Source of the DNA: a virus
Taxonomy: Duplodnaviria > Caudoviricetes
DNA length: 31,076 nucleotides
IMG/VR virus record: IMGVR_UViG_3300037518_000590
Location: 1 to 31,076 of that record
Strand: one strand, 5' to 3'
In this document: piece after piece, positions 5,560 through 22,419 of the stretch
Position numbering within the stretch: position 1 is the first letter of the stretch
Layout of the letters: each line of letters begins with the position of its first letter
Notes under the pieces: generated by a model
What the model saw: the letters and a program-made list of their open reading frames with translations, nothing else
What the model was told of the DNA's origin: nothing
Databases searched by the model: none
Made by a program: the position numbers and the translations under genes

Positions 5560-5766
5560 TCAGGCAGCGTCGCTGGGCGGCTCCAAATGCCGCGTCAGGA
5601 AAATGTGCAGCGGCTCCATGGTGCTTAGACGGTGCGACTTGTATTCGCGGCGGGCGACCTTCTCGAGCGTCCGCAGTGGCACACCTGTTGCCTGCGAGAC
5701 CTCCTCCCAACGACCCTTCCATCGCTGAAGCCCTTCAACCACCTGATCATGGATCGACATTGCCAT
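5560..5766 (-). CDS. Cro-like HTH regulator (probably leaderless)
   Basis: WEEVSQATGVPLRTLEKVAR HTH; divergent from the repressor; ATG 7 nt after a TATGCT -10 box. Confidence 0.75.
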   Translation of the reverse strand: MAMSIHDQVVEGLQRWKGRWEEVSQATGVPLRTLEKVARREYKSHRLSTMEPLHIFLTRHLEPPSDAA

Positions 5767-5773
5767 GCGCCCG

Positions 5774-5815
5774 AGCATAGACCCGGATTAGGGTTTTATC
5801 AACCCGGAACAGGGC
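5774..5815 (-). promoter_or_regulatory. PR-like promoter with operators
   Basis: Minus strand TTGATA (5802-5797), 17 bp, TATGCT (5779-5774). Operator AGACCCGGATTAGGGTT at 5779-5795; a second degenerate site at 5801-5815. Confidence 0.75.
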
Positions 5816-5841: not shown

Positions 5842-6213
5842 ATGGCGCGGCGTTCAAAGAAGGATCGGCCTCCGGCGATAATCCAGGGCGTGCTTGCGGA
5901 CAATGTGCAACGTCTGCGCGATCGCCTATGGCCGGAACTGCCGAATCAGACGCAGCGCAATGAGCGAATCGCGAAGGACTCCGATACGTCGCTCTCGCAG
6001 ATCGTGTGCCGCTTCACGTTGCCCTCGTTCAGCCGCCAGCGGATCATCAATCAGGAACTCGCGCCTGGGATCGATATCGTTGAGCGACTCGCCACTGCCC
6101 TGAACGTGCGCCCTCAGGATCTCCTGACGCCGTATTTCGCCGCCCAGGCTTATAGGCCAACGCTTGTTGAATCGGTCCGAGAGTCGGACCCAAACGGCCT
6201 GCCGACGACATAG
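5842..6213 (+). CDS. CI-like XRE-family repressor with an apparent 11-aa insertion in the HTH
   Basis: VLADNVQRLR...IAKDSDTSLSQI[VCRFTLPSFSR]QRIINQELAPGIDIVERLATALNVRPQDLL. Confidence 0.75.
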   Translation: MARRSKKDRPPAIIQGVLADNVQRLRDRLWPELPNQTQRNERIAKDSDTSLSQIVCRFTLPSFSRQRIINQELAPGIDIVERLATALNVRPQDLLTPYFAAQAYRPTLVESVRESDPNGLPTT

Positions 6214-6254: not shown

Positions 6255-6296
6255 ACCCTAATCAGGGTTGACAAGACCCGGATTAGGGTTCAGTCT
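6255..6296 (+). promoter_or_regulatory. PL-like promoter with two operators
   Basis: TTGACA at 6268-6273. The 17-bp spacer 6274-6290 is identical to the operator at 5779-5795. An inverted operator ACCCTAATCAGGGT lies at 6255-6268. Weak -10 CAGTCT. Confidence 0.75.
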
Positions 6297-6321: not shown

Positions 6322-6588
6322 TTACCGGGGCTTCCCTTGCATAATTTCGCTCGCCGACCGCGAGTCGGCCTGGCCGTTGACGGCTCGGCAATCACGACAA
6401 ATCAGCCGGCTCGTGAAGAGCAGCACGAAGAACAGAATGGCGGCGACCAGCAGCAGCGGCCAAAAGATAACGCCCGCGATCAAGCAGACCAGAAAGATCA
6501 GCCAGGCGCCGCCCGTGGCGCCCTTGACAATAGCCTTTCCCTCAAAGCCGCAGGTCGGACAGTGGATAGTCGGCGCGGTGAAATACAT
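6322..6588 (-). CDS. Small membrane protein with CxxC-hydrophobic-CxxC layout (LITAF-like zinc ribbon)
   Basis: CPTC...long hydrophobic hairpin...CRDC. Confidence 0.65.
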   Translation of the reverse strand: MYFTAPTIHCPTCGFEGKAIVKGATGGAWLIFLVCLIAGVIFWPLLLVAAILFFVLLFTSRLICRDCRAVNGQADSRSASEIMQGKPR

Positions 6589-6764: not shown

Positions 6765-7220
6765 ATGAACGACCAGGCATATCTCACCAAGATCGATTTC
6801 CTCGGCGCCGACCGCCTCGACGAGGCATCCGACTGGGTTGCCGTTCGCGATGAACGAACCGGCCTGACCTGGGCGAAGGAGCCGATCGCGGTCGACGACT
6901 GGCTGCCCGAGACCGAGCAGCGAATCGCCGCCGAGCTAAAGGCATCGACTTTGGCTGGCATGGATGGCTGGCGGATCCCGACGCTCGAGGAGCTGGTATC
7001 GATCGTTCACACCGTTCGGCCGAGCATTGACTCCGCCTTCTTTCCGGGTTGCCCGATCGACTGGTTTTGGACATCAACGGTGTATGCGCCCTCCCCGGGC
7101 GGCGGAGCGTGGAGCGTCGACTTCTACAACGGCTACGCGTACTGGCTCGGCCGAGGCAGCGGCGGGTTCGCTCGCGCCGTGCGCGCCAGTCAGTCATCGG
7201 CCATTGGCTCGCCGAAATGA
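6765..7220 (+). CDS. DUF1566/Lcl-type protein, DGR target 1
   Basis: VRDERTGLTW...GWRIPTLEEL...FWTST...AW.V.F..G...RAVR; C-terminal VR at 7086-7193. Confidence 0.9.
   Translation: MNDQAYLTKIDFLGADRLDEASDWVAVRDERTGLTWAKEPIAVDDWLPETEQRIAAELKASTLAGMDGWRIPTLEELVSIVHTVRPSIDSAFFPGCPIDWFWTSTVYAPSPGGGAWSVDFYNGYAYWLGRGSGGFARAVRASQSSAIGSPK
7086..7193 (+). repeat. DGR variable repeat VR1 (108 bp)
   Basis: Aligns without gaps to 8538-8645, 9518-9625 and 14938-15045. Confidence 0.9.
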
Positions 7221-7435
7221 GTGCCGAGGTGATCGATCTCCGGTTCTACCGGCCGGTCCGAGCGGTACCGGCTTCGGCTAGCCGCGGTGCTGCCGTACCA
7301 CTTGCCAACCCGGGTGTCGTTTACGAAGCCTGGGTCGAGTCGAACGCGAAGCGCATCTGGGCACTCCTGCAGCGATCGAACCGTCGCGACCGGACCTTCA
7401 ACGACTTCGCCCTGGAGCTTTGGAGGACCCTCTGA
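7217..7435 (+). CDS. Hypothetical protein
   Basis: ATGA overlap with target 1; MSAEVIDLRFYRP... Confidence 0.55.
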   Translation: MSAEVIDLRFYRPVRAVPASASRGAAVPLANPGVVYEAWVESNAKRIWALLQRSNRRDRTFNDFALELWRTL

Positions 7436-7578
7436 TGCCAAATGACTTCATCGAATCCTACGATGCCGACGTTGTCGCGGAACTTGAGCGTTACGACCGC
7501 CTGCGAAAGCAATGGGTCGATCGGCACGCAACTATCGATGGCTTCGACGCCTGGTTAGCGACGGAGGGATCGTCATGA
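7435..7578 (+). CDS. Hypothetical protein (47 aa)
   Basis: GGAGG RBS; TGATG and ATGA coupling on both sides. Confidence 0.5.
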   Translation: MPNDFIESYDADVVAELERYDRLRKQWVDRHATIDGFDAWLATEGSS

Positions 7579-7766
7579 GCACAACGCTGACACGCGAGCA
7601 ACGTCTCGCCATGCAGTCCCAGGGATACGTCTTTCCGGATCCACGCGATCAGGAACTCTTTGATCGCGGCCGGGAACTTTCCTGGCACCAGCACATCGCT
7701 AGGAACTGCCTGGCGCAAGGCCGTCACGTAGACGGTCAGCCGATCAGTCGGACGAGACGGCTGTGA
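7575..7766 (+). CDS. Hypothetical protein
   Basis: GGAGG RBS; ATGA coupling. Confidence 0.5.
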   Translation: MSTTLTREQRLAMQSQGYVFPDPRDQELFDRGRELSWHQHIARNCLAQGRHVDGQPISRTRRL

Positions 7767-7871
7767 GCGGCGGCTGGCTTCTCGTCGCCGTGTTGCTGGC
7801 CGTTTGGCTCTGGTGGGGCCGCCGGCCTTCTCGTTGATTTCAATCGCAACAACACCATCAGGAGCTCACGC

Positions 7872-8183
7872 ATGCCAACAGAAACGACGAAGATCGCCGC
7901 CGACGGCGCAGACCTCGCGCCTGACGCGACCGACTGGGTCGCCCTCCGCGACGACACGACCGGACTGACCTGGAGCCGCGCGAATATCGGCGACAAACGC
8001 CTGAAGCACAAGCAAGCCGTCAAGGCCTGCACCGCACTCGACCTCGCCGGCGCCACTGACTGGCGCCTGCCAACGATCCGCGAGCTGCAGCGAGTTCAAG
8101 GCATCGCGCCTGGCTGGCCTGGATGGCTGGCGGATCCCGACGCTCGAGGAGCAGGTATCGATCCTTCACACCGGTCTCGCTGA
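7872..8183 (+). pseudogene. Truncated chimeric DUF1566 paralog lacking a VR
   Basis: 7872-8088 parallels the 8211 gene up to DWRLPTIREL; 8091-8173 is an out-of-frame near-copy of 6932-7014. Confidence 0.8.
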
Positions 8184-8210
8184 TTCCAATAACAACCACA
8201 GAGGTGTCCC

Positions 8211-8675
8211 ATGACGAAAGACGAGACAGAGCCGCGCTTCATCAAGGTCGGCCTGGACGGCGACGCCCTCGCCGGAGAGATGGACGACTGGGTTGCCGTT
8301 CGCGACCGCACCACGGGACTGACCTGGAGCCGGGCAAACGTCAGCGACAAACGTCTGACGCACAAGCAAGCCATCAAGGCGTGCGCCGCGCTTAATCTCG
8401 CGGGCCACGCGGACTGGCGCCTGCCAACGATCCGCGAGCTGCTCACCCTGGTTGACTACGGCCGGTACGGCCCGGCGATCGATATCGACCTGTTCCCCGA
8501 GTGCAAACCGAACTGGTATTGGTCAGACACACCGTATGCGCCCTCCCCGGGCGACTTCGCGTGGTACGTCGGCTTCTACCTCGGCATCGCGGGCTGGTAC
8601 GGCCGTGGCGGCAGCGGGTTCGTTCGCGCCGTGCGCGCCAGTCAGTCATTGGCTGATGGGTCTTCACTCGAATGA
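8211..8675 (+). CDS. DUF1566/Lcl-type protein, DGR target 2 (directly upstream of avd)
   Basis: RDRTTGLTW...DWRLPTIREL...YWSDT...AWYVGF..G...FVRAVR. Confidence 0.9.
   Translation: MTKDETEPRFIKVGLDGDALAGEMDDWVAVRDRTTGLTWSRANVSDKRLTHKQAIKACAALNLAGHADWRLPTIRELLTLVDYGRYGPAIDIDLFPECKPNWYWSDTPYAPSPGDFAWYVGFYLGIAGWYGRGGSGFVRAVRASQSLADGSSLE
8538..8645 (+). repeat. DGR variable repeat VR2
   Basis: Ungapped alignment to the other three VRs; differences fall mainly in NNC codons. Confidence 0.9.
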
Positions 8676-9085
8676 GCCAGGCCGCACCACCGATCGTTCA
8701 GCTTGCGGAGCGCGTGCTCGTCGAGCTCGAACAGGTGGTCCGCCTGTTTCCGCGCTACCACAAGTACGCGGTGGGCGCGGATCTGCGCGAACAGGCGCGG
8801 ATCGTCGCCCGTCGACGCGTGGTCGCACACTGCCGCGAGAAGTTGAACGGATGGCAGCGCCGGCACGTTCGCGGTCGCCGTTTGATCGGTCGGCCAGCGG
8901 ACTTCGAAGCCGTGCGGTCGGTGTGGCAGAGCTATCTCGGCCACCTGTCACATGCCAACAGCAAACGACTGATTGGTCGCTTGCACCGTGAATTCCCGTG
9001 GCTCCGACGAGCCACGGCCAGAACGACTTTTGACTATCGCCTCGAGGGACGGACCGTCGTCCTTCTGGCATCCAGCCAACCATAG
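8672..9085 (+). pseudogene. avd: Avd N-terminus fused in frame to DGR reverse-transcriptase C-terminus
   Basis: First ~45 aa (VRLFPRYHKYAVGADLREQA) match the Avd/four-helix-bundle pattern. The rest (RRRVVAHCREKL...WQSYLGHLSHANS...FPWL) matches the DGR RT C-terminal region. No YxDD motif. Confidence 0.8.
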
Positions 9086-9094
9086 GGGAAATCG

Positions 9095-9628
9095 ATGCAG
9101 ACTTTGCAGGACGAGCTTCGGCAGACGATAGAGCGCCGTGTGCGCCAGGCGTCAGCGGATGAAATGACGCGGATCATCCTCGCGTTGATGATGGAGGACG
9201 AGATCGACCTGTCGGCCGATGAGGAGTCGCCAGAATCTGGCGATCGGTTCGAGTTCACGCACCACGACGACCAGATCGTGATCGATCACAGAAGCGGTCT
9301 CATGTGGTCCCGCGAAGAACTCAGCACCAAGCGAGTGGTGTGGGCCGAGGCCAATTCACTCTGCGGAGATCTCAAACTCGCAGGCTTCAGCGACTGGCGC
9401 TTGCCAACCGTGGACGAGCTGTTCGCCCTGGCTGACCGAACTCGATCTGAACCTGCGATCGATACTCGATTCTTCCCGGACTGCAAACCGAGCTGGTACT
9501 GGTCGAGCACACCGTATGCGCCCTCCCCGGGCGACTGCGCGTGGAACGTCAACTTCTACGACGGCTACGCGCTCTGGTGCAGCCGAGGCTACTACGGGTT
9601 CGTTCGCGCCGTGCGCGCCAGTCAGTAA
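9095..9628 (+). CDS. DUF1566/Lcl-type protein, DGR target 3, with an extra N-terminal segment
   Basis: VIDHRSGLMW...WAEANSLC..L.LAGFSDWRLPTVDEL...YWSST...AWNVNF..G...FVRAVR. Confidence 0.9.
   Translation: MQTLQDELRQTIERRVRQASADEMTRIILALMMEDEIDLSADEESPESGDRFEFTHHDDQIVIDHRSGLMWSREELSTKRVVWAEANSLCGDLKLAGFSDWRLPTVDELFALADRTRSEPAIDTRFFPDCKPSWYWSSTPYAPSPGDCAWNVNFYDGYALWCSRGYYGFVRAVRASQ
9518..9625 (+). repeat. DGR variable repeat VR3
   Basis: Ungapped alignment; retains AAC at two variable codons (TGG AAC GTC AAC TTC). Confidence 0.9.
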
Positions 9629-9796
9629 TTGGTCCTTTGGCTCGCTGTGTCAGATCGCACGATTGAACCCGAGTGCCTGTGCCGCCTGCCGGAGACAGCT
9701 GGCTATGCGTGTCCGGTTCATGACGCTGCCAGGGTAGGCGGCGTTGCGGCGCGTGGGGCGGCGCCCGATGCTCGCCCCACGACGCCGCACCTGCAT

Positions 9797-10009
9797 TTGA
9801 GTCCAGATGAGCTCGTCGAGCTGACTGGGCTCAAGCGTCACAGCGCCCAGATCCGATGGCTTAACGCGAACCGCTGGACCTTCCAGGTCCGTGCCGATGG
9901 CCGGCCGTCGGTCGCGCGCGCGGAGTACTCGGCGCAGATGTGCTCCGGTCGGCCGAGCGATCCCCGGCGCGTCGGCCCCGATCTGGCGGCGCTGGACCGG
10001 CTGGGGTAA
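9797..10009 (+). CDS. DUF4224-like excisionase (start uncertain; may lie further upstream)
   Basis: LSPDELVELTGLKRHSAQIRWL...ADGRPSV...PDLAAL, immediately upstream of the integrase. Confidence 0.75.
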   Translation: MSPDELVELTGLKRHSAQIRWLNANRWTFQVRADGRPSVARAEYSAQMCSGRPSDPRRVGPDLAALDRLG

Positions 10010-10013
10010 CTTG

Positions 10014-11000
10014 ATGCGCGTGGGGCGAAGAAGAAGAACGAACCGCCACCTGCCGAAGGGCGTGACCTTCGAGCATGGCGCCTACTATTACCGCTGTCCG
10101 GACCACAAGCGGATTCACCTCGGCCGTTCGCTCGGCGAGGCGATGGCGGGCTGGTCGGCGTTGGTCGCAACCGACGACGGAGAGCTCCGGACGCTGCACC
10201 AGGTGTTCGAGCGTTATAAGGTCGAGGTCCTGCCGAGGAAGGCAGCGGCGACACAGCGCAGCCAGGGATACATGGTGCCAATCCTGGACACGGTCTTCGG
10301 CCGCATGTCGCCGGCAGCGCTAAAGCCCAGGGACGTTTACGCCTACCTTGCCAAACGCAGCCGCAAGGCCCCGGGTGGCGCGATCAAGGAAGCAAACCTG
10401 CTGAGCCACTGCATGACCAAGGCGGTTGAGTGGGGTGTCGTCGACGAGAACCCGTGCCTGCAGGTCCGCAAGGGCGAGTACACGCCGGCCGCTCGCGATC
10501 GCTGCCCGTCGGACCTCGAATACGTGACGGTGTATGAGCTCGCCAGCGAGCGAATGAAGATCGCGATGGACATTGCCCTGTTAACCGGGCTTCGCCGCTC
10601 CGGCGTGATCTCGCTGACGCTTGACGCCGACACGGCGGACGGGCTGCTCGTGCCCAGGCCCGGTAAGACGACGAAACCACTGCTGTTCGAGTGGTCGCCG
10701 GAGCTCCGGGAAATCGTGGACAGGGCGAAGCGACTGGAGCCACGCGTGCGACGCGCCCTGCTCTGCACAACGAACGGCCAGCACTACACGCCGGATGGCT
10801 TCACGACGAACTGGACCCGGTTGATGGCAAAGGCAAAGAAGGCCGGCCTTGATCCGTTCCGCTTCCAGGACATCCGGGCGAAGTCCGCAACCGACGACGA
10901 CGACGCGACCAGCGCATCAGCGAGGCTCGGGCACTCGACCGTGGAGATCACGAAGCGGGTGTATATCCGGAAGCCGTCGAAGGTGAGGCCGCTGCGGTGA
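10014..11000 (+). CDS. int: Tyrosine recombinase/integrase
   Basis: GRRRRTNRHLP N-terminus; LLTGLR; FQDIRAK; LGH; VY. Confidence 0.92.
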   Translation: MRVGRRRRTNRHLPKGVTFEHGAYYYRCPDHKRIHLGRSLGEAMAGWSALVATDDGELRTLHQVFERYKVEVLPRKAAATQRSQGYMVPILDTVFGRMSPAALKPRDVYAYLAKRSRKAPGGAIKEANLLSHCMTKAVEWGVVDENPCLQVRKGEYTPAARDRCPSDLEYVTVYELASERMKIAMDIALLTGLRRSGVISLTLDADTADGLLVPRPGKTTKPLLFEWSPELREIVDRAKRLEPRVRRALLCTTNGQHYTPDGFTTNWTRLMAKAKKAGLDPFRFQDIRAKSATDDDDATSASARLGHSTVEITKRVYIRKPSKVRPLR

Positions 11001-11043
11001 ATCTCAGATTCTCACCGCACACGTCGAAAAAGGAGATTTGACG

Positions 11044-11418
11044 ATGAACGTTAGCACCACGGAATTGGACGAGGTCTCAAGGACATTCGCAACGCCCATT
11101 CTGGCATCGATCACGACGGGCACACTGCTCTGCCGCTCATTCTCGGAGATGCACGAGGCTTGTGAGTGGCTGCTCGGGCGATTCGTCTGGACGCATGAGT
11201 TTGCGGATGATGCGACGTACGATCGCTTGAAGGCGATGGTGCTCGATCAGCATCCTGACTTTGACCTTCAGGCCGATGGCATTGATGCAGATAACTGGGC
11301 GCCGTTCGCGCTTCACTTGATTGAGCAGCTCGGGCCGTCACGGGTAATGGTGAAAGTCCCCGAAGGGGAAGCGAAAACCAAAGACGGCCGACGGATCGAG
11401 TTGGAGCCAGTCGTGTGA
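11044..11418 (+). CDS. Hypothetical protein
   Basis: AGGAG RBS; protein-like sequence (ITTGTLLC..FSEMHEACEWLLG..VWTHEF). Confidence 0.65.
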   Translation: MNVSTTELDEVSRTFATPILASITTGTLLCRSFSEMHEACEWLLGRFVWTHEFADDATYDRLKAMVLDQHPDFDLQADGIDADNWAPFALHLIEQLGPSRVMVKVPEGEAKTKDGRRIELEPVV

Positions 11419-11759
11419 AAAGATATGGATCCAATCCATCACCGCCCGACTCCACGACGAAGCCACGGCCGCCGCCTTCGCCGTCGCGCGCGACTCGCAA
11501 CGCATCGGGAAACGATCTGGTCGATCTGATTGGCGAGTGCCTGGCCAGAGGCCACAGTGTAGAGATCGTCAAGTGCGGGCAGTACGCGAAGCCCGGAAAA
11601 CCCTTCCTCTGTCGGGTCAGCAGCGGCGGCTTCGGGTCGGATGACCACTTGGTCTACGGCGACGACGCCCGCACGATCCTTCTGAAGGCGATGGAGCACG
11701 TACTGGCGCACGGCTTCACTCAGGAGCAGGACCGATACGGACTTGGACGCAGACGATGA
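11415..11759 (+). CDS. Hypothetical protein
   Basis: GTGA overlap with the upstream gene. Confidence 0.5.
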   Translation: MKRYGSNPSPPDSTTKPRPPPSPSRATRNASGNDLVDLIGECLARGHSVEIVKCGQYAKPGKPFLCRVSSGGFGSDDHLVYGDDARTILLKAMEHVLAHGFTQEQDRYGLGRRR

Positions 11760-11812
11760 CCAGGACGAAGCTCAGCTGACCGCCATCCACCACCCTTTAA
11801 GGAGCATTGACG

Positions 11813-12076
11813 ATGAAGCTGACGGACGCCATTCAACGATTGGAGCGCGAGAAGGAGAAGCTGGGCGACGACTCAGCCGTGTCTTTAATCGGTCTGATCG
11901 AGATCATCTTTGCTGATCAGCCGCGGGTCATCGAAGAGCACAAGGCCAGAGAGCGTTTGGTTTGGGATGTCATCAAGGCGAAACGCGATGCAGGCTATCC
12001 GCGCGATGCCGTCTTCTTTGTGAGCGTGTGGCCGGAGGCGCTGCAGGCTTTGCTGGCGGCTCGCTCGAAGCCATGA
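11813..12076 (+). CDS. Hypothetical protein
   Basis: AAGGAG RBS; ends at the attP arm region. Confidence 0.55.
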   Translation: MKLTDAIQRLEREKEKLGDDSAVSLIGLIEIIFADQPRVIEEHKARERLVWDVIKAKRDAGYPRDAVFFVSVWPEALQALLAARSKP

Positions 12077-12318
12077 TTTCCCACAACCCCCACTTTTTCC
12101 CACACTGCCTAGAACCGCATAGCATCTCAAAGCCGCGCCGGCTGGTGCCCCGGGCAAGACTCGAACTTGCGACCTTCCGCTTAGGAGGCGGACGCCCAGT
12201 TTCACGTAAGGCATTGAGCCAGAAGCCATTCAGTGGCAACGGCTGTGGGAAAAATCGCTCGGATCAGCCGCCGTAAGTGGTTGATTGACCGAGATAGCGC
12301 GAATTATTTCCCACAGCC
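12077..12318. repeat. Putative integrase arm-type sites flanking the att core
   Basis: TTTCCCACA at 12077, 12096 and 12307; inverted copy at 12244-12252. 12241-12252 and 12307-12318 form a perfect 12-bp inverted repeat. Confidence 0.7.
12143..12195 (-). other. attP core: 3' part of a tRNA-Arg(CCT)
   Basis: Minus strand GCG TCCGC CTCCTAA GCGGA AGGTC GCAAG TTCGAGT CTTGC CCGGGGC ACCA gives anticodon arm, T-arm, acceptor 3' strand and CCA. No 5' acceptor strand or D-arm upstream. Confidence 0.88.
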
Positions 12319-12334
12319 TGAGAGGCCCAGAACG

Positions 12335-13921
12335 ATGCCTGACGATAGACTGACGACCCTGCCGCTCGACCGCATCGAGCTGTCCCGGACCGACGCCCAG
12401 GTTGCCCGCCGCAAACGATTTGACGCCGCGGCCCTGAGTGAGCTCGCCGAGAGCATGCGCCAATACGGAGTGCTGCAGCCGATCATCTGCCGCTCGACCG
12501 CGACGGATTACGAGCTCGTCGCCGGCGAGCGCCGTTACCTCGCGGCAAAGCAGGCAGGCCTCGCCAAAATCCCAGCCGTCGTTCGATCGCTGTCGGACGC
12601 GGCGGTGATTGAGGTGCAGCTGATCGAAAACCTGCAGCGCGCCGACGTGCACCCGATGGAGGAGGCGGAGGGCTACCAGCAGCTGATGAAGCAGCACGGT
12701 CGTCCGATCGAGGAGCTCCATGCCAAGGTGGGCAAGAGTCGCAGCTATGTTTACGGGCGGCTGAAGCTGCTCGACCTGTGCAAGCAGGCCCGCAATGCGT
12801 TCTACGATGGCAAGCTGTCGGCCTCGATCTCGCTGCTGGTCGCTCGGATCCCGGGCGAGGCGCTGCAGAAGCAGGCGCTCGATCGGGTCCTCGGCGGGCA
12901 TTTCTGGCAACCGATGAGTTATCGCGACGCGAGCGATTGGATTCAGCACGAGCTCATGCTCCGCCTGAAGGACGCCCCCTTCCCGACTGACGACGTCCTG
13001 CTCGACGATCAGGCGGGGCCGTGCACCACCTGCCCGAAGCGGACCGGCAATCAGCCGGAACTGTTTGGCGATATCCAGGGTGCAGACGTCTGCACAGATC
13101 CGGCGTGCCACAAGGGCAAACTGGTGGCCTGGGGCGAAAGACTCCTCGAGGCGGCCGAGGGGCGCGGTCAGAAAGTCATTGCCGGCGCCGAAGCGAAGAA
13201 AGTAGCGCCGCGCGGTGCGGCGCAATACCAAACGCTAAATGGCTGGCACAAGCTCGACGAGAAGAACTGGGACGTCGGAAAAACGATCAAGCAGATCGTC
13301 GGCAAGACCGCGGAGCGGGCACTCCTGCAATGCCCGGAGACCGGGCTCGTCGTCGAGGTCGTCTCGGCCGCGACCGTCAGGGCCGCGCTGAAGGAGTCCG
13401 GTCAGCGGGCGACGACGAACGACCCGTACAAAGCGGCACAGCAGAAGCAAAGGATCGAGCGACAGTTCCGGCACGCACTCTATGCTGAGATTCGGCCGAC
13501 GCTTCCGCCGCCGACGCCCCAGGCGATCGCGGTGACCTTGCTCAAGCGGCTTTGGCACGACGCGGTCAAAGTGCTCTGCACCGTGCGCGGCTTCGAGGCA
13601 CCAATCAGTAAGGGCTACGGCGGTAGCAAGCACAAAGACTATTTGGCGATCGGGAAGGGTATCGAAAGCTGGACCGACGAAGCTGCCCAGGAGCTGATCA
13701 ACGATATGCTTTACGTGAGCGAGCTCATGGTGTCGACGCACTCAACGAGTCAACCCAAGCAGCTCCTCGAGGCCGCGAAGGCCGCCGGCGTGGATCCGGC
13801 CGCGGTGCGGCGCAGCGTGTCGCCGGCGAAGAAAAAGACCACGAAGAAGAAGCCTGCGCAGAAGAAGAAACAAGCGGCCAGCAAAAAGAGGGTGGCACGG
13901 AAGAAGGCGGCGGCACGATGA
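12335..13921 (+). CDS. ParB/RepB/Spo0J family protein with Cys cluster and Lys-rich tail
   Basis: ELAESMRQYGVLQPII...YELVAGERRYLAA...ENLQRADVHPMEEA; CTTCPKRTG...CTDPAC; likely start ATG 12335. Confidence 0.9.
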   Translation: MPDDRLTTLPLDRIELSRTDAQVARRKRFDAAALSELAESMRQYGVLQPIICRSTATDYELVAGERRYLAAKQAGLAKIPAVVRSLSDAAVIEVQLIENLQRADVHPMEEAEGYQQLMKQHGRPIEELHAKVGKSRSYVYGRLKLLDLCKQARNAFYDGKLSASISLLVARIPGEALQKQALDRVLGGHFWQPMSYRDASDWIQHELMLRLKDAPFPTDDVLLDDQAGPCTTCPKRTGNQPELFGDIQGADVCTDPACHKGKLVAWGERLLEAAEGRGQKVIAGAEAKKVAPRGAAQYQTLNGWHKLDEKNWDVGKTIKQIVGKTAERALLQCPETGLVVEVVSAATVRAALKESGQRATTNDPYKAAQQKQRIERQFRHALYAEIRPTLPPPTPQAIAVTLLKRLWHDAVKVLCTVRGFEAPISKGYGGSKHKDYLAIGKGIESWTDEAAQELINDMLYVSELMVSTHSTSQPKQLLEAAKAAGVDPAAVRRSVSPAKKKTTKKKPAQKKKQAASKKRVARKKAAAR

Positions 13922-14130
13922 GCAGCTACGTGTACCTCGGCAGCGAGCCGGGGCTTTGGACTGTTGGATTCTACCGACCAAGCGGAGAGTGGGAGCCGGA
14001 ATCAGACCACGAAAGCTCGGAAGCGGCCGCCGCGCGCGTGGCGTGGCTGAACGGTTCCGTGACCAACGTCGATGAGGAAGTTCGCGATGTGCCGGCCCCT
14101 CAACCTTACACTGATGGGTCTGCGTCATGA
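13918..14130 (+). CDS. Small hypothetical phage protein
   Basis: ATGA coupling; SEPGLWTVGFY...WEPESDH...AAARVAWLNG. Confidence 0.7.
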   Translation: MSSYVYLGSEPGLWTVGFYRPSGEWEPESDHESSEAAAARVAWLNGSVTNVDEEVRDVPAPQPYTDGSAS

Positions 14131-14357
14131 CCATGAAGGAGCGCAGCGCCTATCCGCTCAGTTGGCCCGATCACTGGCCGCGAACAACGAAGTTCGGGTC
14201 GTCGAGCTTCCGCACCACGCTCGCCGGCGCGCTCAACAACGTGCAGAACGCCATCAATACGCTGCGCTCAAAACACCATCCGGACCGCGGTGGCGATGCC
14301 GCCGCATTCCATGAAGTCCTCAGCGCGTACGAGGCGGCCCGCGCTGAAAACCGTTAG
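14127..14357 (+). CDS. Short J-domain-like protein, probably internally deleted
   Basis: AYPLSWPDHWPRT N-terminus joined almost directly to KHHPDRGG...F..V..AYE. Confidence 0.65.
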   Translation: MTMKERSAYPLSWPDHWPRTTKFGSSSFRTTLAGALNNVQNAINTLRSKHHPDRGGDAAAFHEVLSAYEAARAENR

Positions 14358-14400
14358 CAGTGGTCATCAATTTCACCAACCGCCAATAGGAGGAAACCTT

Positions 14401-14565
14401 ATGGCAACGCGACAGATGCACCCGGCTCAGGATGCGAAAGAAATGAAGGTCCACACGCGGCTCAAGGTGTTTGACATCTTGATCGTTAAGGGGCTTGACG
14501 TATCTGAAGCGAAGGAGAAGGCGCGTGAAATCGCTGACTCCTTCACCGATGACTACGAAGAGTAA
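14401..14565 (+). CDS. Hypothetical protein (54 aa)
   Basis: AGGAGG RBS before ATG 14401. Confidence 0.6.
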   Translation: MATRQMHPAQDAKEMKVHTRLKVFDILIVKGLDVSEAKEKAREIADSFTDDYEE

Positions 14566-14573
14566 TCAGACCA

Positions 14574-14597
14574 GGCGGCGGGCTTCGGCTCGCCGCC
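14574..14597 (+). other. Stable hairpin with C(UUCG)G tetraloop
   Basis: GGCGGCGGGC TTCG GCTCGCCGCC; no U-tract follows. Confidence 0.6.
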
Positions 14598-14616
14598 GCT
14601 GACTAAGGAGTACTTG

Positions 14617-15048
14617 ATGAATGAACGGTTTGTGAAGATCGGCGCCGACGGCGCGGAGTTGCCGGCGGACGCCGGTGAATGGGTTGCCGTGAGGGATACG
14701 ACGACGGGGTTGGTCTGGGCGGTGGAACCCGTCCCGGTGGATGACTGGTCAGACGAGACAGAGGCCAGGGTCGCTGCGGAACTCGCTGCCTCACCTCTGG
14801 CGGGCCTGAACGGCTGGCGGATCCCAACGCGCGCCGAGCTCGTCACGCTGATCGATGACACGCGGTACGATCCGGCGATCGATATCCGTTTCTTCCCCGA
14901 CTGCCCGAGCGATTGGTTCTGGACGTCGACGAAGGCTGCGCCCTCCCCGGGCGACTTCGCGTGGTACGTCAGCTTCAGCTACGGCGGCGCGAGCTGGGGC
15001 CTCCGAGGCAGCAACGGGTTCGTTCGCGCCGTGCGCGCCAGTCAGTAA
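14617..15048 (+). CDS. DUF1566/Lcl-type protein, remote DGR target 4
   Basis: TAAGGAG RBS; VRDTTTGLVW...GWRIPTRAEL...FWTST...AWYVSF..G...FVRAVR. Confidence 0.9.
   Translation: MNERFVKIGADGAELPADAGEWVAVRDTTTGLVWAVEPVPVDDWSDETEARVAAELAASPLAGLNGWRIPTRAELVTLIDDTRYDPAIDIRFFPDCPSDWFWTSTKAAPSPGDFAWYVSFSYGGASWGLRGSNGFVRAVRASQ
14938..15045 (+). repeat. DGR variable repeat VR4
   Basis: Ungapped alignment to VR1-3; 3' flank TAATTGGTC shared with VR3. Confidence 0.9.
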
Positions 15049-15179
15049 TTGGTCTTTTGGATACGGCCACGAAGAAGCGATCGGCGCCGGGCGCTTGTCG
15101 TAAGTGTGACTCAGACACTCTTGCGGCGCGGGCGCCGCCGATAGATTGGGTTGCTCCACTCCACCCTCGGATGACCGCC

Positions 15180-15803
15180 ATGAAGCACGCAAGCCTCTTG
15201 CTACTGATCTGCACGCCCTGCGCCTTCGCTCAGGATTGGGAGTCCTCCTACAGCTACATCGGAGTCGACTACGCCCAGCTCGACGTCGACGTGCTCGGGA
15301 CCACGCTCGACGCCGACGGGTTTGCGCTCGAAGGTTCCGCTGCGCTCGCCGATCACGTTCACGTCTTCGGTACCCATGCCAGCGCAACCAGCGATGACCT
15401 GTCGGCCGATGTCACCTATCAGGAGCAAAGCGTCGGTCTCGGTGTGCACTTCAACCTGCAGCGCGCCTCCGTGCTCGTCCAGCCTGCGGTCAGCGTGTTC
15501 GCCCGTATCGGGTACATCGATGGCGAGATCGAGGTCGACGGGCTCGGGTCATTGTCGGACGACGGGATCACGCGCAGTTTCGGGATTCGTCTGATGCCAG
15601 GCCCGCGGTCCGAATTCCGCGGGGCAGTCGAGTATGTCGACATCGACAGCACCCGGAGCGGCACGGCCGTGTCCATCGGCGGCGACATTTACATCGGCGA
15701 ATCGTCAGCGCTCCGGCTCGGCTACATTGACTACCTCGACGAGGACGCCGAGGCGCTGACGGTCGGGGTGCGGTTCTACTTCGGGAACAGCGCAGCCGAC
15801 TAA
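15180..15803 (+). CDS. Outer-membrane beta-barrel protein (moron)
   Basis: Signal peptide ending AFA; SYSYIGVDY...DADGFALEGS; alternating beta-strands; near-terminal VGVRFYF. Confidence 0.8.
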   Translation: MKHASLLLLICTPCAFAQDWESSYSYIGVDYAQLDVDVLGTTLDADGFALEGSAALADHVHVFGTHASATSDDLSADVTYQEQSVGLGVHFNLQRASVLVQPAVSVFARIGYIDGEIEVDGLGSLSDDGITRSFGIRLMPGPRSEFRGAVEYVDIDSTRSGTAVSIGGDIYIGESSALRLGYIDYLDEDAEALTVGVRFYFGNSAAD

Positions 15804-19659: not shown

Positions 19660-22419
19660 TCAGAGGGTCGCTTCGAGCGGATAGCCGCGGCCGACGACGG
19701 CCGACAGCTGGTAGATCCGGACCGTGACTTCGGCCTGCGCCGATCCGAAGTCCGTGGTCTGCTGGGCCGCGGTGTACAGCGCCGCAGGTGACGTCAGCGA
19801 GCCGATGGTCCGAACGACCGTCGACCCGTTCAGGATGTCAACCTCGTACGCTTCGCTTGCCTCCGACATTGGCACCGGCGCCCCGTCGAGCAGCGTGTCG
19901 GCAAGGCGGTCGCGGCGCGTCCAGCCGATCGTAAGATCCCCGGTCGAGTCACGCTCCCCGGCGGCCTGCACCGGCGAGAACGGCTCGAGCGCTTCGCCCG
20001 ATCCGGTGAACGTCTGGTCGACGCCTGCGGCGAAGGCGGCGCCATTGGTCACCGGCCGGTAGATCCGCTCGGCGCCGATCTCGTTGTTCGCAAGGCTCGG
20101 ACGGATGATTCCAGGCCCCGAGACCAGAACGAAGGTGTCGCCCGGCTGCGCTGTCCCGATCAGATGCTCGGTGCCACGGCGCCCCTGCAGGAGCCGCGTC
20201 AGGCGATATCGCCCGGTCGCGATCAGCTCGGCGCTGGCGAACTGGAAGATGTGCCAGCGGCCGTCCGCGCCAATCGCCGCACCGTTCGCGCCGGCGAGGA
20301 CCGCAGCGTCCGTCCGACTCTCGAGCGTGCCCTGGCTGATATCGACGACGATTTCGCGCGCGTTGTCCCAGGTGTGCGGGTCGCCATCCGCCGGTGCGCT
20401 GACGACCGTCCCGATCGTCGCCTGGTTCGCCACCGTCGCGATGTTGTCGTAGGTCTCCCCGTCGACGGATCGAAACACCCGCGCGCCAGGCCAGTCGGTG
20501 CCGATGCCGGTGCGGACCGCGGCGACGTAGAACGCAGCGTTGTCGTCGGCCTCCCTGAGCGCCGGAAGATCGAGAAAGATCAGCGCGGTGCCGCCAAGCA
20601 GCACAACGCTCGACGGCGGTCTGAGTCCGGCGGGCGCAAGCCCGATCGACGTGTACGCATCATCGTCGTCACGCACCGCCTCGGCCGATCGGATCACGAG
20701 TCCCGCGTCGCTGATCGAGGTCAGCCGGATCCGGTAGAGCCGACCCTCGTCCGGCACCAGCAGCACGTCGGCAGGCTCAAGCCGATGCCATTCCGGACCG
20801 AGTGTGATCTGGTAGTTCCAACGGCTGGCCCAGGCCTCGCGGTGCACGATGTCCACGATCTGCGAGGCCTTCGCGTCGGACATCGCGACCGAAAGCTCCG
20901 TCGAGACGTCGTTGACGGCAATGGTATTGTGGCGCACGCGCGAGAGCTGCTCACCGCGCTCGTAGTCTCGCGCGACCGAGCGATAGCGCAATCTGACCTG
21001 CCGCGGCAGCTCGACGTCCTGCGCCTTCACCACCGAAAGCCCCGGCGGCCCCTCGGCGCCTGACTCGTGGACGCCGAAGTCGTCGACGGTCAGTGTCGCA
21101 ACGGGTGCTTTGCCGCGGGCCGGGAAGCGCAGCGTTGGTCCGCGCTCAACGATATCGAACATTCCGACAGTCCGAAGCGGCGCGAGTGCGGAGCGCGCCG
21201 ACGTCTCCCGGGTCAGGGTGTAGCCGTCAATGAAGTTCTCAAGGTGGTCTGACGCATCGATGCTTTCAACCCCTGCGCGCCCGCAGATGCTTCGAATGAC
21301 GCTCTCGAGGGATGTGCCGTTCGTCTCGGTCCAGTGACGGAAGCTGTCGATCGCGAACGCGCCGTCACCCCAGGCGAAATCCGCGCGCGACGTCCAGTGC
21401 GCGGCGCCCGGCGGCGCAACCCCGCGCGCGGTCGGGCGGACCCATTCCGCCAGCGCGTCGTAGCCATAGATGAGCGCGCTGTAGGTGGTGCCGATGATCG
21501 CCATCGCTTCGTCGTACCACTGGATGCCGATCCGTGCCCAGGGCGCATCCTCGTCCGCGCCCCAGCTCTCCGACGGACTCTGCAGCCTCGCCTCGAGGCC
21601 GACGACGGTGCCGGGCTCGACGGTCGGACGGGCGTCGTTCGTCAGCGTCTTCTGCGTGCTGTTCGGATTGGAGGTGAAGCCCGCCCGTGCAGACCAGGTG
21701 CCGTCGAAGGTCGGCCCGACTTCGTCAATCGTGCCGGAGCCTGATCCGGTCCACGTCCACCCGGTGTCCCCGCCTTCGAAGTCGGCGTTGTCGAGCTCGT
21801 CACCGTAACGGACGAGCCCGCTGGTGCTGAGTCCGCCGGTGAGCCGAAACTGAAAGCGCCTGAGCACACTCATGCCGACCTGATCGAGCATGGCACCCTC
21901 GACGTCGGCCGACAGCAGATACTCCGTGTCGTAGCGATCGCGTTGCTGCCGGTAGTAGAGCGAGCTGCCCCGGACGTACGCGAGGATCACGTCGGACGTG
22001 CCGCTCTCGGTGGCGAGCTCCCGGTGGTCGTCGAGCGAGCAACGCACGCTGGTCGAGCCGGCCGGCAGTGTGTCGGTCGTGAAGCCGGGAATCGTCGGGT
22101 CGAACCAGTAGAACCTTGCCGCGCCGTTGGCAGTGTCCCAGGCGATGACCGGTTGCATGTTCTGGTCGAAGGCGAGCGAGCACGAGATAACAACGTCGGC
22201 GACAGAGACGAGCGTGACCGGATCGACGCCGGGCGTGTCGATGATGAAGTCGCCCTCGACAAATCGCAGCCGCCAGATCCGGACCTCCAGCCCCTCGCTG
22301 CCGTCGTTGAGCGCGACACCGCCGAGCTCGAATTCCTCGAGCGGCCGCTTGTAGCGGTTGCGGGGCGGCAGGAACGCGGCCGGGTACGGCTCGGTCGACA
22401 GTACGTCCTGAGGCAGCAT
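19660..22419 (-). CDS. Tail tip/host-specificity protein (GTA-like C-terminal half) with carbohydrate-binding-like insert
   Basis: LPRQVRLRY...RDYE; LDLPAL; LLQGRRGTE; IGWTRRDR...SEAYEVDI...YTAAQQTTDFG...IYQLSAVVGRG; NADFEGGDTGWT insert. Confidence 0.85.
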   Translation of the reverse strand: MLPQDVLSTEPYPAAFLPPRNRYKRPLEEFELGGVALNDGSEGLEVRIWRLRFVEGDFIIDTPGVDPVTLVSVADVVISCSLAFDQNMQPVIAWDTANGAARFYWFDPTIPGFTTDTLPAGSTSVRCSLDDHRELATESGTSDVILAYVRGSSLYYRQQRDRYDTEYLLSADVEGAMLDQVGMSVLRRFQFRLTGGLSTSGLVRYGDELDNADFEGGDTGWTWTGSGSGTIDEVGPTFDGTWSARAGFTSNPNSTQKTLTNDARPTVEPGTVVGLEARLQSPSESWGADEDAPWARIGIQWYDEAMAIIGTTYSALIYGYDALAEWVRPTARGVAPPGAAHWTSRADFAWGDGAFAIDSFRHWTETNGTSLESVIRSICGRAGVESIDASDHLENFIDGYTLTRETSARSALAPLRTVGMFDIVERGPTLRFPARGKAPVATLTVDDFGVHESGAEGPPGLSVVKAQDVELPRQVRLRYRSVARDYERGEQLSRVRHNTIAVNDVSTELSVAMSDAKASQIVDIVHREAWASRWNYQITLGPEWHRLEPADVLLVPDEGRLYRIRLTSISDAGLVIRSAEAVRDDDDAYTSIGLAPAGLRPPSSVVLLGGTALIFLDLPALREADDNAAFYVAAVRTGIGTDWPGARVFRSVDGETYDNIATVANQATIGTVVSAPADGDPHTWDNAREIVVDISQGTLESRTDAAVLAGANGAAIGADGRWHIFQFASAELIATGRYRLTRLLQGRRGTEHLIGTAQPGDTFVLVSGPGIIRPSLANNEIGAERIYRPVTNGAAFAAGVDQTFTGSGEALEPFSPVQAAGERDSTGDLTIGWTRRDRLADTLLDGAPVPMSEASEAYEVDILNGSTVVRTIGSLTSPAALYTAAQQTTDFGSAQAEVTVRIYQLSAVVGRGYPLEATL

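Follow-up and report, generated by a model that had tools for sequence, protein, structure and literature searches.

Target genes and their variable repeats

We analysed a 31,076-nucleotide stretch from a virus of the Caudoviricetes (IMG/VR record IMGVR_UViG_3300037518_000590, positions 1 to 31,076; hereafter the window), in which a first-pass annotation made from the letters alone had described a multi-target diversity-generating retroelement (DGR) acting on four small DUF1566 proteins. In the established mechanism of the phage BPP-1 element, a template is copied with randomisation of its adenines into a variable repeat (VR). Four 108-bp repeats, beginning at positions 7086, 8538, 9518 and 14938 of the window, align without gaps and contain 26 variable columns. 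Positions 1 and 2 vary in twelve codons (6, 7, 10, 12, 14, 15, 17, 19, 21, 22, 25 and 26), the third-position C is retained in 47 of the 48 variable codons (the exception being GGA at codon 7 of the first copy), and the remaining differences are confined to CGA/CGT and GTT/GCT. Re-alignment reproduced the annotated repeat in each of these respects. The 3′ 30-mer of the repeat matches the window four times, compared with a mean of 0.00 in 100 shuffles.

The target open reading frames (ORFs) encode proteins of 151, 154, 177 and 143 aa, and all match Pfam Lcl_C/DUF1566 (PF07603, E 6e-21 to 2e-31). The VR overlaps the DUF1566 domain in short single-domain proteins, the arrangement that defines category 'd' (CLec2) targets in Wu 2018 (PMC5758913). 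Target 1 (6765..7220, + strand) is a stand-alone Lcl_C domain of the C-type lectin (CLec) type, with its VR at 7086-7190 followed by the initiation motif (IMH). Target 2 (8211..8675, +; VR 8538-8642) is the core target and lies directly upstream of avd. Target 3 (9095..9628, +; VR 9518-9622) has two predicted N-terminal helices and a linker ahead of its CLec domain, and target 4 (14617..15048, +; VR 14938-15042) is a remote stand-alone CLec protein. The annotation was silent on a truncated fifth copy lacking a VR (7872..8183, +), which comprises the N-terminal half of the domain (Lcl_C residues 25-75); after it comes an 86-nt segment similar to target 1. The fifth-copy protein is identical on 11 contigs, and no compared contig spans 8088-8147. 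Seven runs (X1 to X7), perhaps from one campaign and possibly including the source sample, were compared as contigs; contigs of runs X3 and X4 connect position 8176 to target 4-like sequence. These junctions, together with the target 1-like patch, suggest that the paralogues may have been shuffled among themselves.

Structural models agree with the annotated picture of multiple small, stand-alone proteins with a C-type lectin fold. The AlphaFold model of target 4, built from 69 homologues, reached a predicted local distance difference test score of 94, and its closest solved fold is the C-terminal domain of Legionella Lcl (Z 11.3, root-mean-square deviation 3.5, 116 aligned residues). The target 3 model matches the same domain with Z 14.5 and has the two additional N-terminal helices. 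The models also match the DGR proteins TvpA and Mtd (Mtd Z 6.3 and 8.1), and the variable residues are predicted to fall in the C-terminal strands of the fold. The target 3 helices gave no Atlas match and were scarcely reached by the fold search; this two-helix extension (window 9095-9200) recurs in one paralogue at many loci and is a possible oligomerisation module.

No template was found in the window, which holds just the four repeat copies, all within target ORFs, and the 3′-end pattern of the repeat had no match in the metagenome contig collection. The template proposed by the annotation is absent from the window, but has a close counterpart on the metagenome contig L179, which carries an intact syntenic cassette of VR, avd, template, reverse transcriptase (RT), a small ORF and a target 3 orthologue; excisionase- and integrase-like genes follow, as in the closest phage relative, L004. 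The L179 template serves as a proxy, its RT being 69% identical to that of L004. Twenty-one of the 26 variable columns fall on adenines of this template, which has 25 A in 108 positions (Fisher p 5e-14), so that adenines are present where adenine-specific mutagenesis, as the annotation had it, calls for them. Differences concentrate at adenines both in the template-VR pair of L179 itself (15/16) and between target 1 and the L179 template (15/22). Identity between the window copies is 94-99% at non-A columns and 25-46% at A columns of the L179 template; in the 66 nt upstream of the repeats it is 52-77%. The four repeats are almost certainly DGR-derived VRs.

The proposed template agrees with that of L179 at 30 of 36 codons and at 10 of the 11 inferred AAC codons, and departs from it at codon 7 and at the 3′ end. 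Codon 7 was most likely TAC rather than AAC, because T occupies its first position in 7/8 VRs and related templates carry TAC or TGC. Similarly, the template probably ended in AGT GAG rather than AGT CAG, because GTGAG in the template stands opposite GTCAG in the VR in 152/154 related pairs; all four window VRs end in GTCAG, the IMH form that differs from the IMH* of the template. Adenine mutagenesis does not explain two codons of target 1, GGA (codon 7) and GCT (codon 29). The 50 nt 3′ of each VR form weak, unshared folds (-1.6 to -7.5 kcal/mol), and a hairpin downstream of the IMH is not universal in DGRs (PMC6602519).

Loss of the retroelement core

The annotation's title implied a working element; here most of avd, the template and the RT core are deleted. 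Between targets 2 and 3 lies an ORF (8672..9085, +), also passed over by the annotation, in which Avd residues 1-47 are joined in frame to RT residues 305-397, with the junction at approximately 8804-8812. The Avd part is 74% identical to the Avd of L179 and the RT part 92% identical to the RT of L004. What remains is 47 of ~143 avd codons and some 93 C-terminal RT residues, without the YVDD site (residue 246). Window positions 8603-8777 align to L179 5-177 and 8804-8880 to L179 1562-1638, giving a deletion of ~1.36 kb that takes the rest of avd, the template and the RT core with YVDD. With the bulk of avd, the entire template and the RT catalytic core missing, the DGR is very probably dead in cis in this sequence.

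The deletion might instead have arisen during assembly, with the element intact in the phage itself. Assemblies are fragile near repeats, the VR-to-template collapse of L004 being an example, and two runs do not bridge the junction (the X4 contig starts 25 nt to its left and X5 has no cover). The junction, however, lies in unique sequence, is bridged without gaps by contigs in five of the seven runs (X1, X2, X3, X6 and X7), and the chimeric protein occurs on 10 contigs from two sources, the longest of 44 kb, making such an artefact scarcely credible. Two fused forms were seen elsewhere. P0001, a 414-aa protein on a Logan contig, reads through from Avd to the RT C-terminus, which suggests an independent lesion of the same type. 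In L004 (1-1398), the target 2 orthologue is in frame with a full RT while avd and the template are missing, reflecting either VR-template recombination or assembly collapse.

Loss of a DGR core with survival of its targets has a precedent in Treponema denticola, where strains without RT and template keep leftover targets (PMC4891356). In both cases targets with mutated VRs outlast the core, but the T. denticola loci are chromosomal, whereas the window is phage DNA with an in-frame Avd::RT scar. The intact relatives of the window resemble BPP-1 (mtd-avd-TR-brt) in gene order, A-to-N changes, 3′ ends at which template and VR diverge, and the CLec fold. The window itself differs from BPP-1, which has one tail receptor-binding target (a 376-residue chain), in having four targets of 143-177 aa away from the tail genes, and no downstream hairpin common to its VRs was seen.

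Identical copies of the targets recur across contigs (target 1 on 10, targets 2 and 3 on 9 each and target 4 on 5), as expected if the VRs are frozen. One X2 contig combines the deletion with a different 3′ half of target 3, and 6/6 of its upstream changes match L004; VRs therefore also move by ordinary recombination, in a direction that cannot be read from this mosaic. Many VR variants occur on contigs of X3, X4 and X6, without assignment to a gene or phage. One of them matches the VR of G001 (locus L001), a complete 41-kb phage that carries at a similar site one target with the window's VR framework; no RT was found in G001, which is a candidate for trans-acting or frozen targets. No RT was found in a sister fragment of the window, G002. 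Two target 4 variants with new VRs (P0248 and P0253), both on one 2.6-kb contig, have ends that run into the tail of an upstream small ORF (window ~14400-14565), reflecting rearrangement or misassembly.

Early placement in the window and its relatives

On the + strand, targets 1-3 are followed by the excisionase and tyrosine integrase genes (9629..11000; phrog_4764 and phrog_1), then by a tRNA half, a ParB gene and target 4. Replication and tail genes lie on the opposite strand, the tail module being 2-15 kb away and containing no VR, and the window targets are stand-alone domains without tail association or virion-attachment domain. We take this layout to correspond to a lambda-like early leftward operon. 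Upstream of the targets, a Cro-like regulator (5560..5778, − strand; phrog_9425 transcriptional repressor, E 8e-11) is divergent from a probable repressor (5842..6213, +), assigned by this position and by the operator pairs on both of its sides. The OR-like pair between the two regulators (5781..5815) consists of 14-mers at 5781 and 5802, 21 nt apart. The OL-like pair (6255..6289, +), with sites at 6255 and 6276, also 21 nt apart, straddles a TTGACA at 6268, and its 14-mer at 6276 is identical to that at 5781; the operator pattern was drawn from these same sites, which inflates its chance figure. The TTGACA is likely a repressor-controlled early promoter upstream of targets 1-3; site 6268 was not listed by a promoter and terminator scan that performed at chance level. 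The tRNA 3′-half (12143..12220, −; Rfam tRNA, model positions 9-63) is a likely attP core, with loose contig ends at 12143 and 12191 that possibly derive from tRNAs of other organisms. Integration there would put target 4, which lies beyond the ParB-like gene (12233..13921, +), at the other end of the prophage.

To place this locus among its relatives, the L004 RT was used as a query, and the best 80 of 590 viral loci were analysed. Of these 80, 75 have a template accompanied within 8 kb by one VR or more, and 65 have two VRs or more; the other five have contig ends that cut in, or are of the fused form. Grouped at 95% RT identity, 56 of 62 clusters are multi-target. Intact relatives share the order target-VR, avd, template, RT. 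All 154 VRs lie on the strand of the template, and 2142 of 2331 mismatches in related pairs fall at template adenines, a figure that is partly a product of filtering the pairs at 70%. Among the targets, 133/154 have an ATG start; of these 133, the median length is 142-146 aa and 131 are at most 300 aa long. As a separate observation, AAC-derived codons in these VRs depart strongly from independence (135 pairs among 154 VRs): Cys (TGC) is used at 0.08x and Ile (ATC) at 0.07x, Leu (CTC) at 4.6x and Tyr, Gly and Ser at 1.5-1.6x. This bias was kept out of the evidence because RT context bias and selection are inseparable.

Gene context was annotated for 145 of 150 de-duplicated large ORFs (the other five being one ParB and four antisense frames), 52 cluster representatives and the 14 tail-module proteins of the window. 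An early marker was found at 73 of the 75 viral loci, and at none of the 75 was the nearest marker a tail gene. A repressor, Cro or CII gene lies upstream at 36 loci and downstream at none, and an integrase, excisionase or transposase gene lies downstream at 30 and upstream at two. Structural or lysis markers occur at 8/75 loci, on the opposite strand in six of them, although small structural genes unlike those of the window could escape this count; they include a weak fibre match ~4 kb upstream of the VR in L042 and downstream Mu late genes in L080. L080 is Mu-like, with transposase A, B, Gam, targets, RT and GemA in this order, the DGR lying between gam and gemA, and in L037 the targets are beside a P2-like replication gene. 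The annotation's placement of the targets among early genes holds for both the window and the relatives, and this comparison strengthens its proposal that the proteins are intracellular binders.

If the proteins were instead virion accessories or released surface binders, such as detachable receptor-binding or decoration subunits, their early location would be incidental. Most viral DGR targets carry tail-protein annotations, the exception stated in the preprint being a CotH-kinase cluster (Roux 2021; PMC8144416). The solved relatives of the fold are adhesins, and small DUF1566 proteins occur in other phages too. Early-operon placement, opposite the late genes, nevertheless recurs whether the layout is lambda-like, P2-like or Mu-like, a scan of 25 longer targets revealed no fibre or anchor domain, and the tail module of the window itself is without a VR; a virion role is on this evidence quite improbable.

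The lineage extends to bacterial genomes, in which 80 loci were found by scanning 21 of 64 database parts and 59 were analysed. All 20 of those within the clade of the query have small targets (118-313 aa); early phage markers accompany 18 of them, and 15 belong to Lysobacterales according to their titles. Among the 39 that lie outside it, one has an early phage marker (the markers being derived from clade phages) and 16 have a target of at least 480 aa. In a tree built from the RTs gathered in this analysis, the clade is one branch of 65/121 RTs (support 1.0, Shimodaira-Hasegawa approximate likelihood-ratio test 99.9); a FastTree support of 0.046 for the clade split was set aside as a rooting artefact. 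Because resemblance to the query defined the clade, what is informative is that it coincides with target size and context. The intact relatives constitute a single RT clade whose prophages are found chiefly in Lysobacterales; Stenotrophomonas genomes also fall into it. The lineage was found in no cultured phage in GenBank (best RT 42%, target 4 without a match). The intracellular reading is directly testable, because the element is intact in cultured environmental strains (Rhodanobacter thiooxydans LCS2, Arenimonas caeni z29, Dyella mobilis DHON07 and Luteimonas notoginsengisoli) and one 105-nt template defines each VR library.

Possible partners inside the host cell

Transmembrane segments and lipoboxes were absent from all 69 aligned targets. 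One of the 25 longer targets has a second known domain: the remote target of L018 (1159-1896) consists of PF13876 fused to Lcl_C, with 13/14 of its VR changes at template adenines. PF13876 is the Acb4 family of sponges directed against the cyclic-oligonucleotide-based antiphage signalling system, of which 8/8 homologues tested bound cyclic GMP-AMP (PMC11722364). A second PF13876-CLec fusion, P0123, is 45% identical, has a VR-like end and is known from the protein alone; the number of such fusions is a lower bound. To judge from its domains, the L018 protein is an example of a CLec domain carried by a counter-defence protein of the cytoplasm. In lambdoid phages, the early operon houses genes for counter-defence and takeover. 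That a coherent clade consistently rewrites very small, free-standing lectin domains encoded amid early genes suggests partners within the cell. The targets are probably non-virion, cytoplasmic, early proteins; that they serve counter-defence specifically is a best guess, less likely than not.

The reading we prefer, at a probability of roughly 55%, is that the four proteins are targets of a phage DGR whose core has been deleted, with frozen tips, and that they would act as early intracellular binders whose likeliest partners are components of host defence. According to this model, copies of one template, randomised at its adenines, were written into every VR that ends in the GTCAG initiation motif, which would equip the phage with 2-4 independently diversified small binders in its early operon. 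Loss of avd, the template and the RT core then likely froze the hypervariable tips. Targets 1-3 would be silent in the lysogen, because their promoter is overlapped by operators, and switched on at infection or induction. The binders would attach to host molecules inside the cell, most likely defence components, and VRs may still have arrived after the deletion through recombination with relatives, as on the mosaic contig, or perhaps through retrohoming in trans.

Several observations weigh against this interpretation. The window is a 31-kb fragment and the chimera is also on a 44-kb contig, so that an RT may lie elsewhere in the phage, and, in the allele P0245 (4 contigs), all seven residues that depart from target 2 lie in variable VR codons, indicating that retrohoming is recent or ongoing in some genotype. 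The probable repressor ORF has no Pfam or PHROG match. Three of the 69 N-termini form a moderately hydrophobic helix that a hydropathy heuristic places near a control signal peptide, the folds nearest to that of the targets belong to extracellular adhesins (Lcl, Bd2740 and intimin), and surface or kinase fusions predominate among longer Lcl_C proteins. Gene position is no proof of absence from virions. As to defence, the Acb4 fusion accounts for 1/154 targets, Acb4-like genes occur at 2/80 viral and 0/59 genome loci, no DGR RT was found in 80 Acb4 phage loci, and Acb4 domains are also fused to unrelated domains. Mu Gam is the sole known protective family among 149 of 462 de-duplicated small neighbours.

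One alternative is that the proteins are early cytoplasmic binders acting on host physiology or phage decisions (transcription or division takeover, lysis-lysogeny tuning, or exclusion of co-infecting phages). All of the positional evidence fits such a role equally well, the neighbours include SutA RNA polymerase-binding domains, DNA methyltransferases, ParB and recombinases, and known counter-defence families are rare nearby. Continuous randomisation would, however, be better matched to a partner that changes fast than to a conserved housekeeping protein, and two Acb4 fusions exist; we regard such a role as unlikely, if worth keeping in view. A further alternative is that the proteins serve the lysogen as prophage antiphage sensors. 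Such a role would follow the cytoplasmic CLec antigen sensors proposed for Clade 5 DGRs of multicellular bacteria, in which short CLec-only targets are thought to be sensors of conflict systems (Doré 2024; PMC10907252), and target 4, beyond the likely att site, could be expressed separately. The window targets share with Clade 5 their short CLec-only form, predicted cytoplasmic location and proposed link to conflict, but Clade 5 targets are host-encoded and effector-linked, whereas those of the window are phage-encoded and would work on behalf of the phage. Genes for effectors, NTPases or TIR proteins do not recur next to the targets, and an operator-covered promoter precedes targets 1-3, so that we hold a sensor function to be very improbable. 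Our ranking accordingly places defence partners ahead of takeover or regulation, followed by a virion accessory and then a lysogen sensor.

Phage DGRs are generally taken as diversifiers of tail fibres for host attachment, from which the RT clade described here differs. Multi-target DGRs with short DUF1566 targets are already known, as is DGR decay: Wu 2018 describes multi-target elements, non-adjacent prophage targets and short DUF1566-only targets, and MyDGR (PMC6602519) reports eight CLec2 targets in tandem for a DGR of Stenotrophomonas sp. SKA14. As described, these systems resemble the lineage in having several short DUF1566/CLec2 targets, one template and avd (the comparison is by description, not by RT), but no early-operon placement or intracellular role is described for them in the parts available, and the core of the window is deleted. 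Two further papers (PMC10743442 and PMC11661182) contain, in the parts available, nothing on this lineage. We found no published description of early-operon or intracellular phage DGR targets, although the supplements of Wu 2018 and Roux 2021 may list such loci. The window locus is itself a decayed copy, a known state, and is of value in that it leads to the lineage; what appears to be new is the lineage-wide use of tiny DGR targets in early operons and, plausibly, a role in counter-defence. Should defence components prove to be bound, phages would possess a programmed, antibody-like evolution of counter-defence. The broader proposal, that the DGR is an adaptive counter-immune system in this clade, whose temperate phages infect Lysobacterales and further proteobacteria, is doubtful at present. 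It would have 2-4 small intracellular lectin scaffolds in the early operon, sometimes fused to Acb4, with binding faces randomised against the defence proteins or signals of the next host. Phages without the engine would retain the binders that had been selected and renew them through recombination or in trans.

Three minor features of the window complete its description. A tRNA called by ARAGORN at 21617-21708 lies within a tail gene and was set aside as likely spurious. Between the early promoter and target 1, a small membrane protein with a zinc ribbon is encoded antisense (6322-6588, −), at a position that presumably resembles that of lambda sieB. Directly after target 4, positions 15171-15803 encode an outer-membrane beta-barrel protein (PF13505) with a signal-like N-terminus, a Lom-like moron that in L004 is split by an HNH-type insert.

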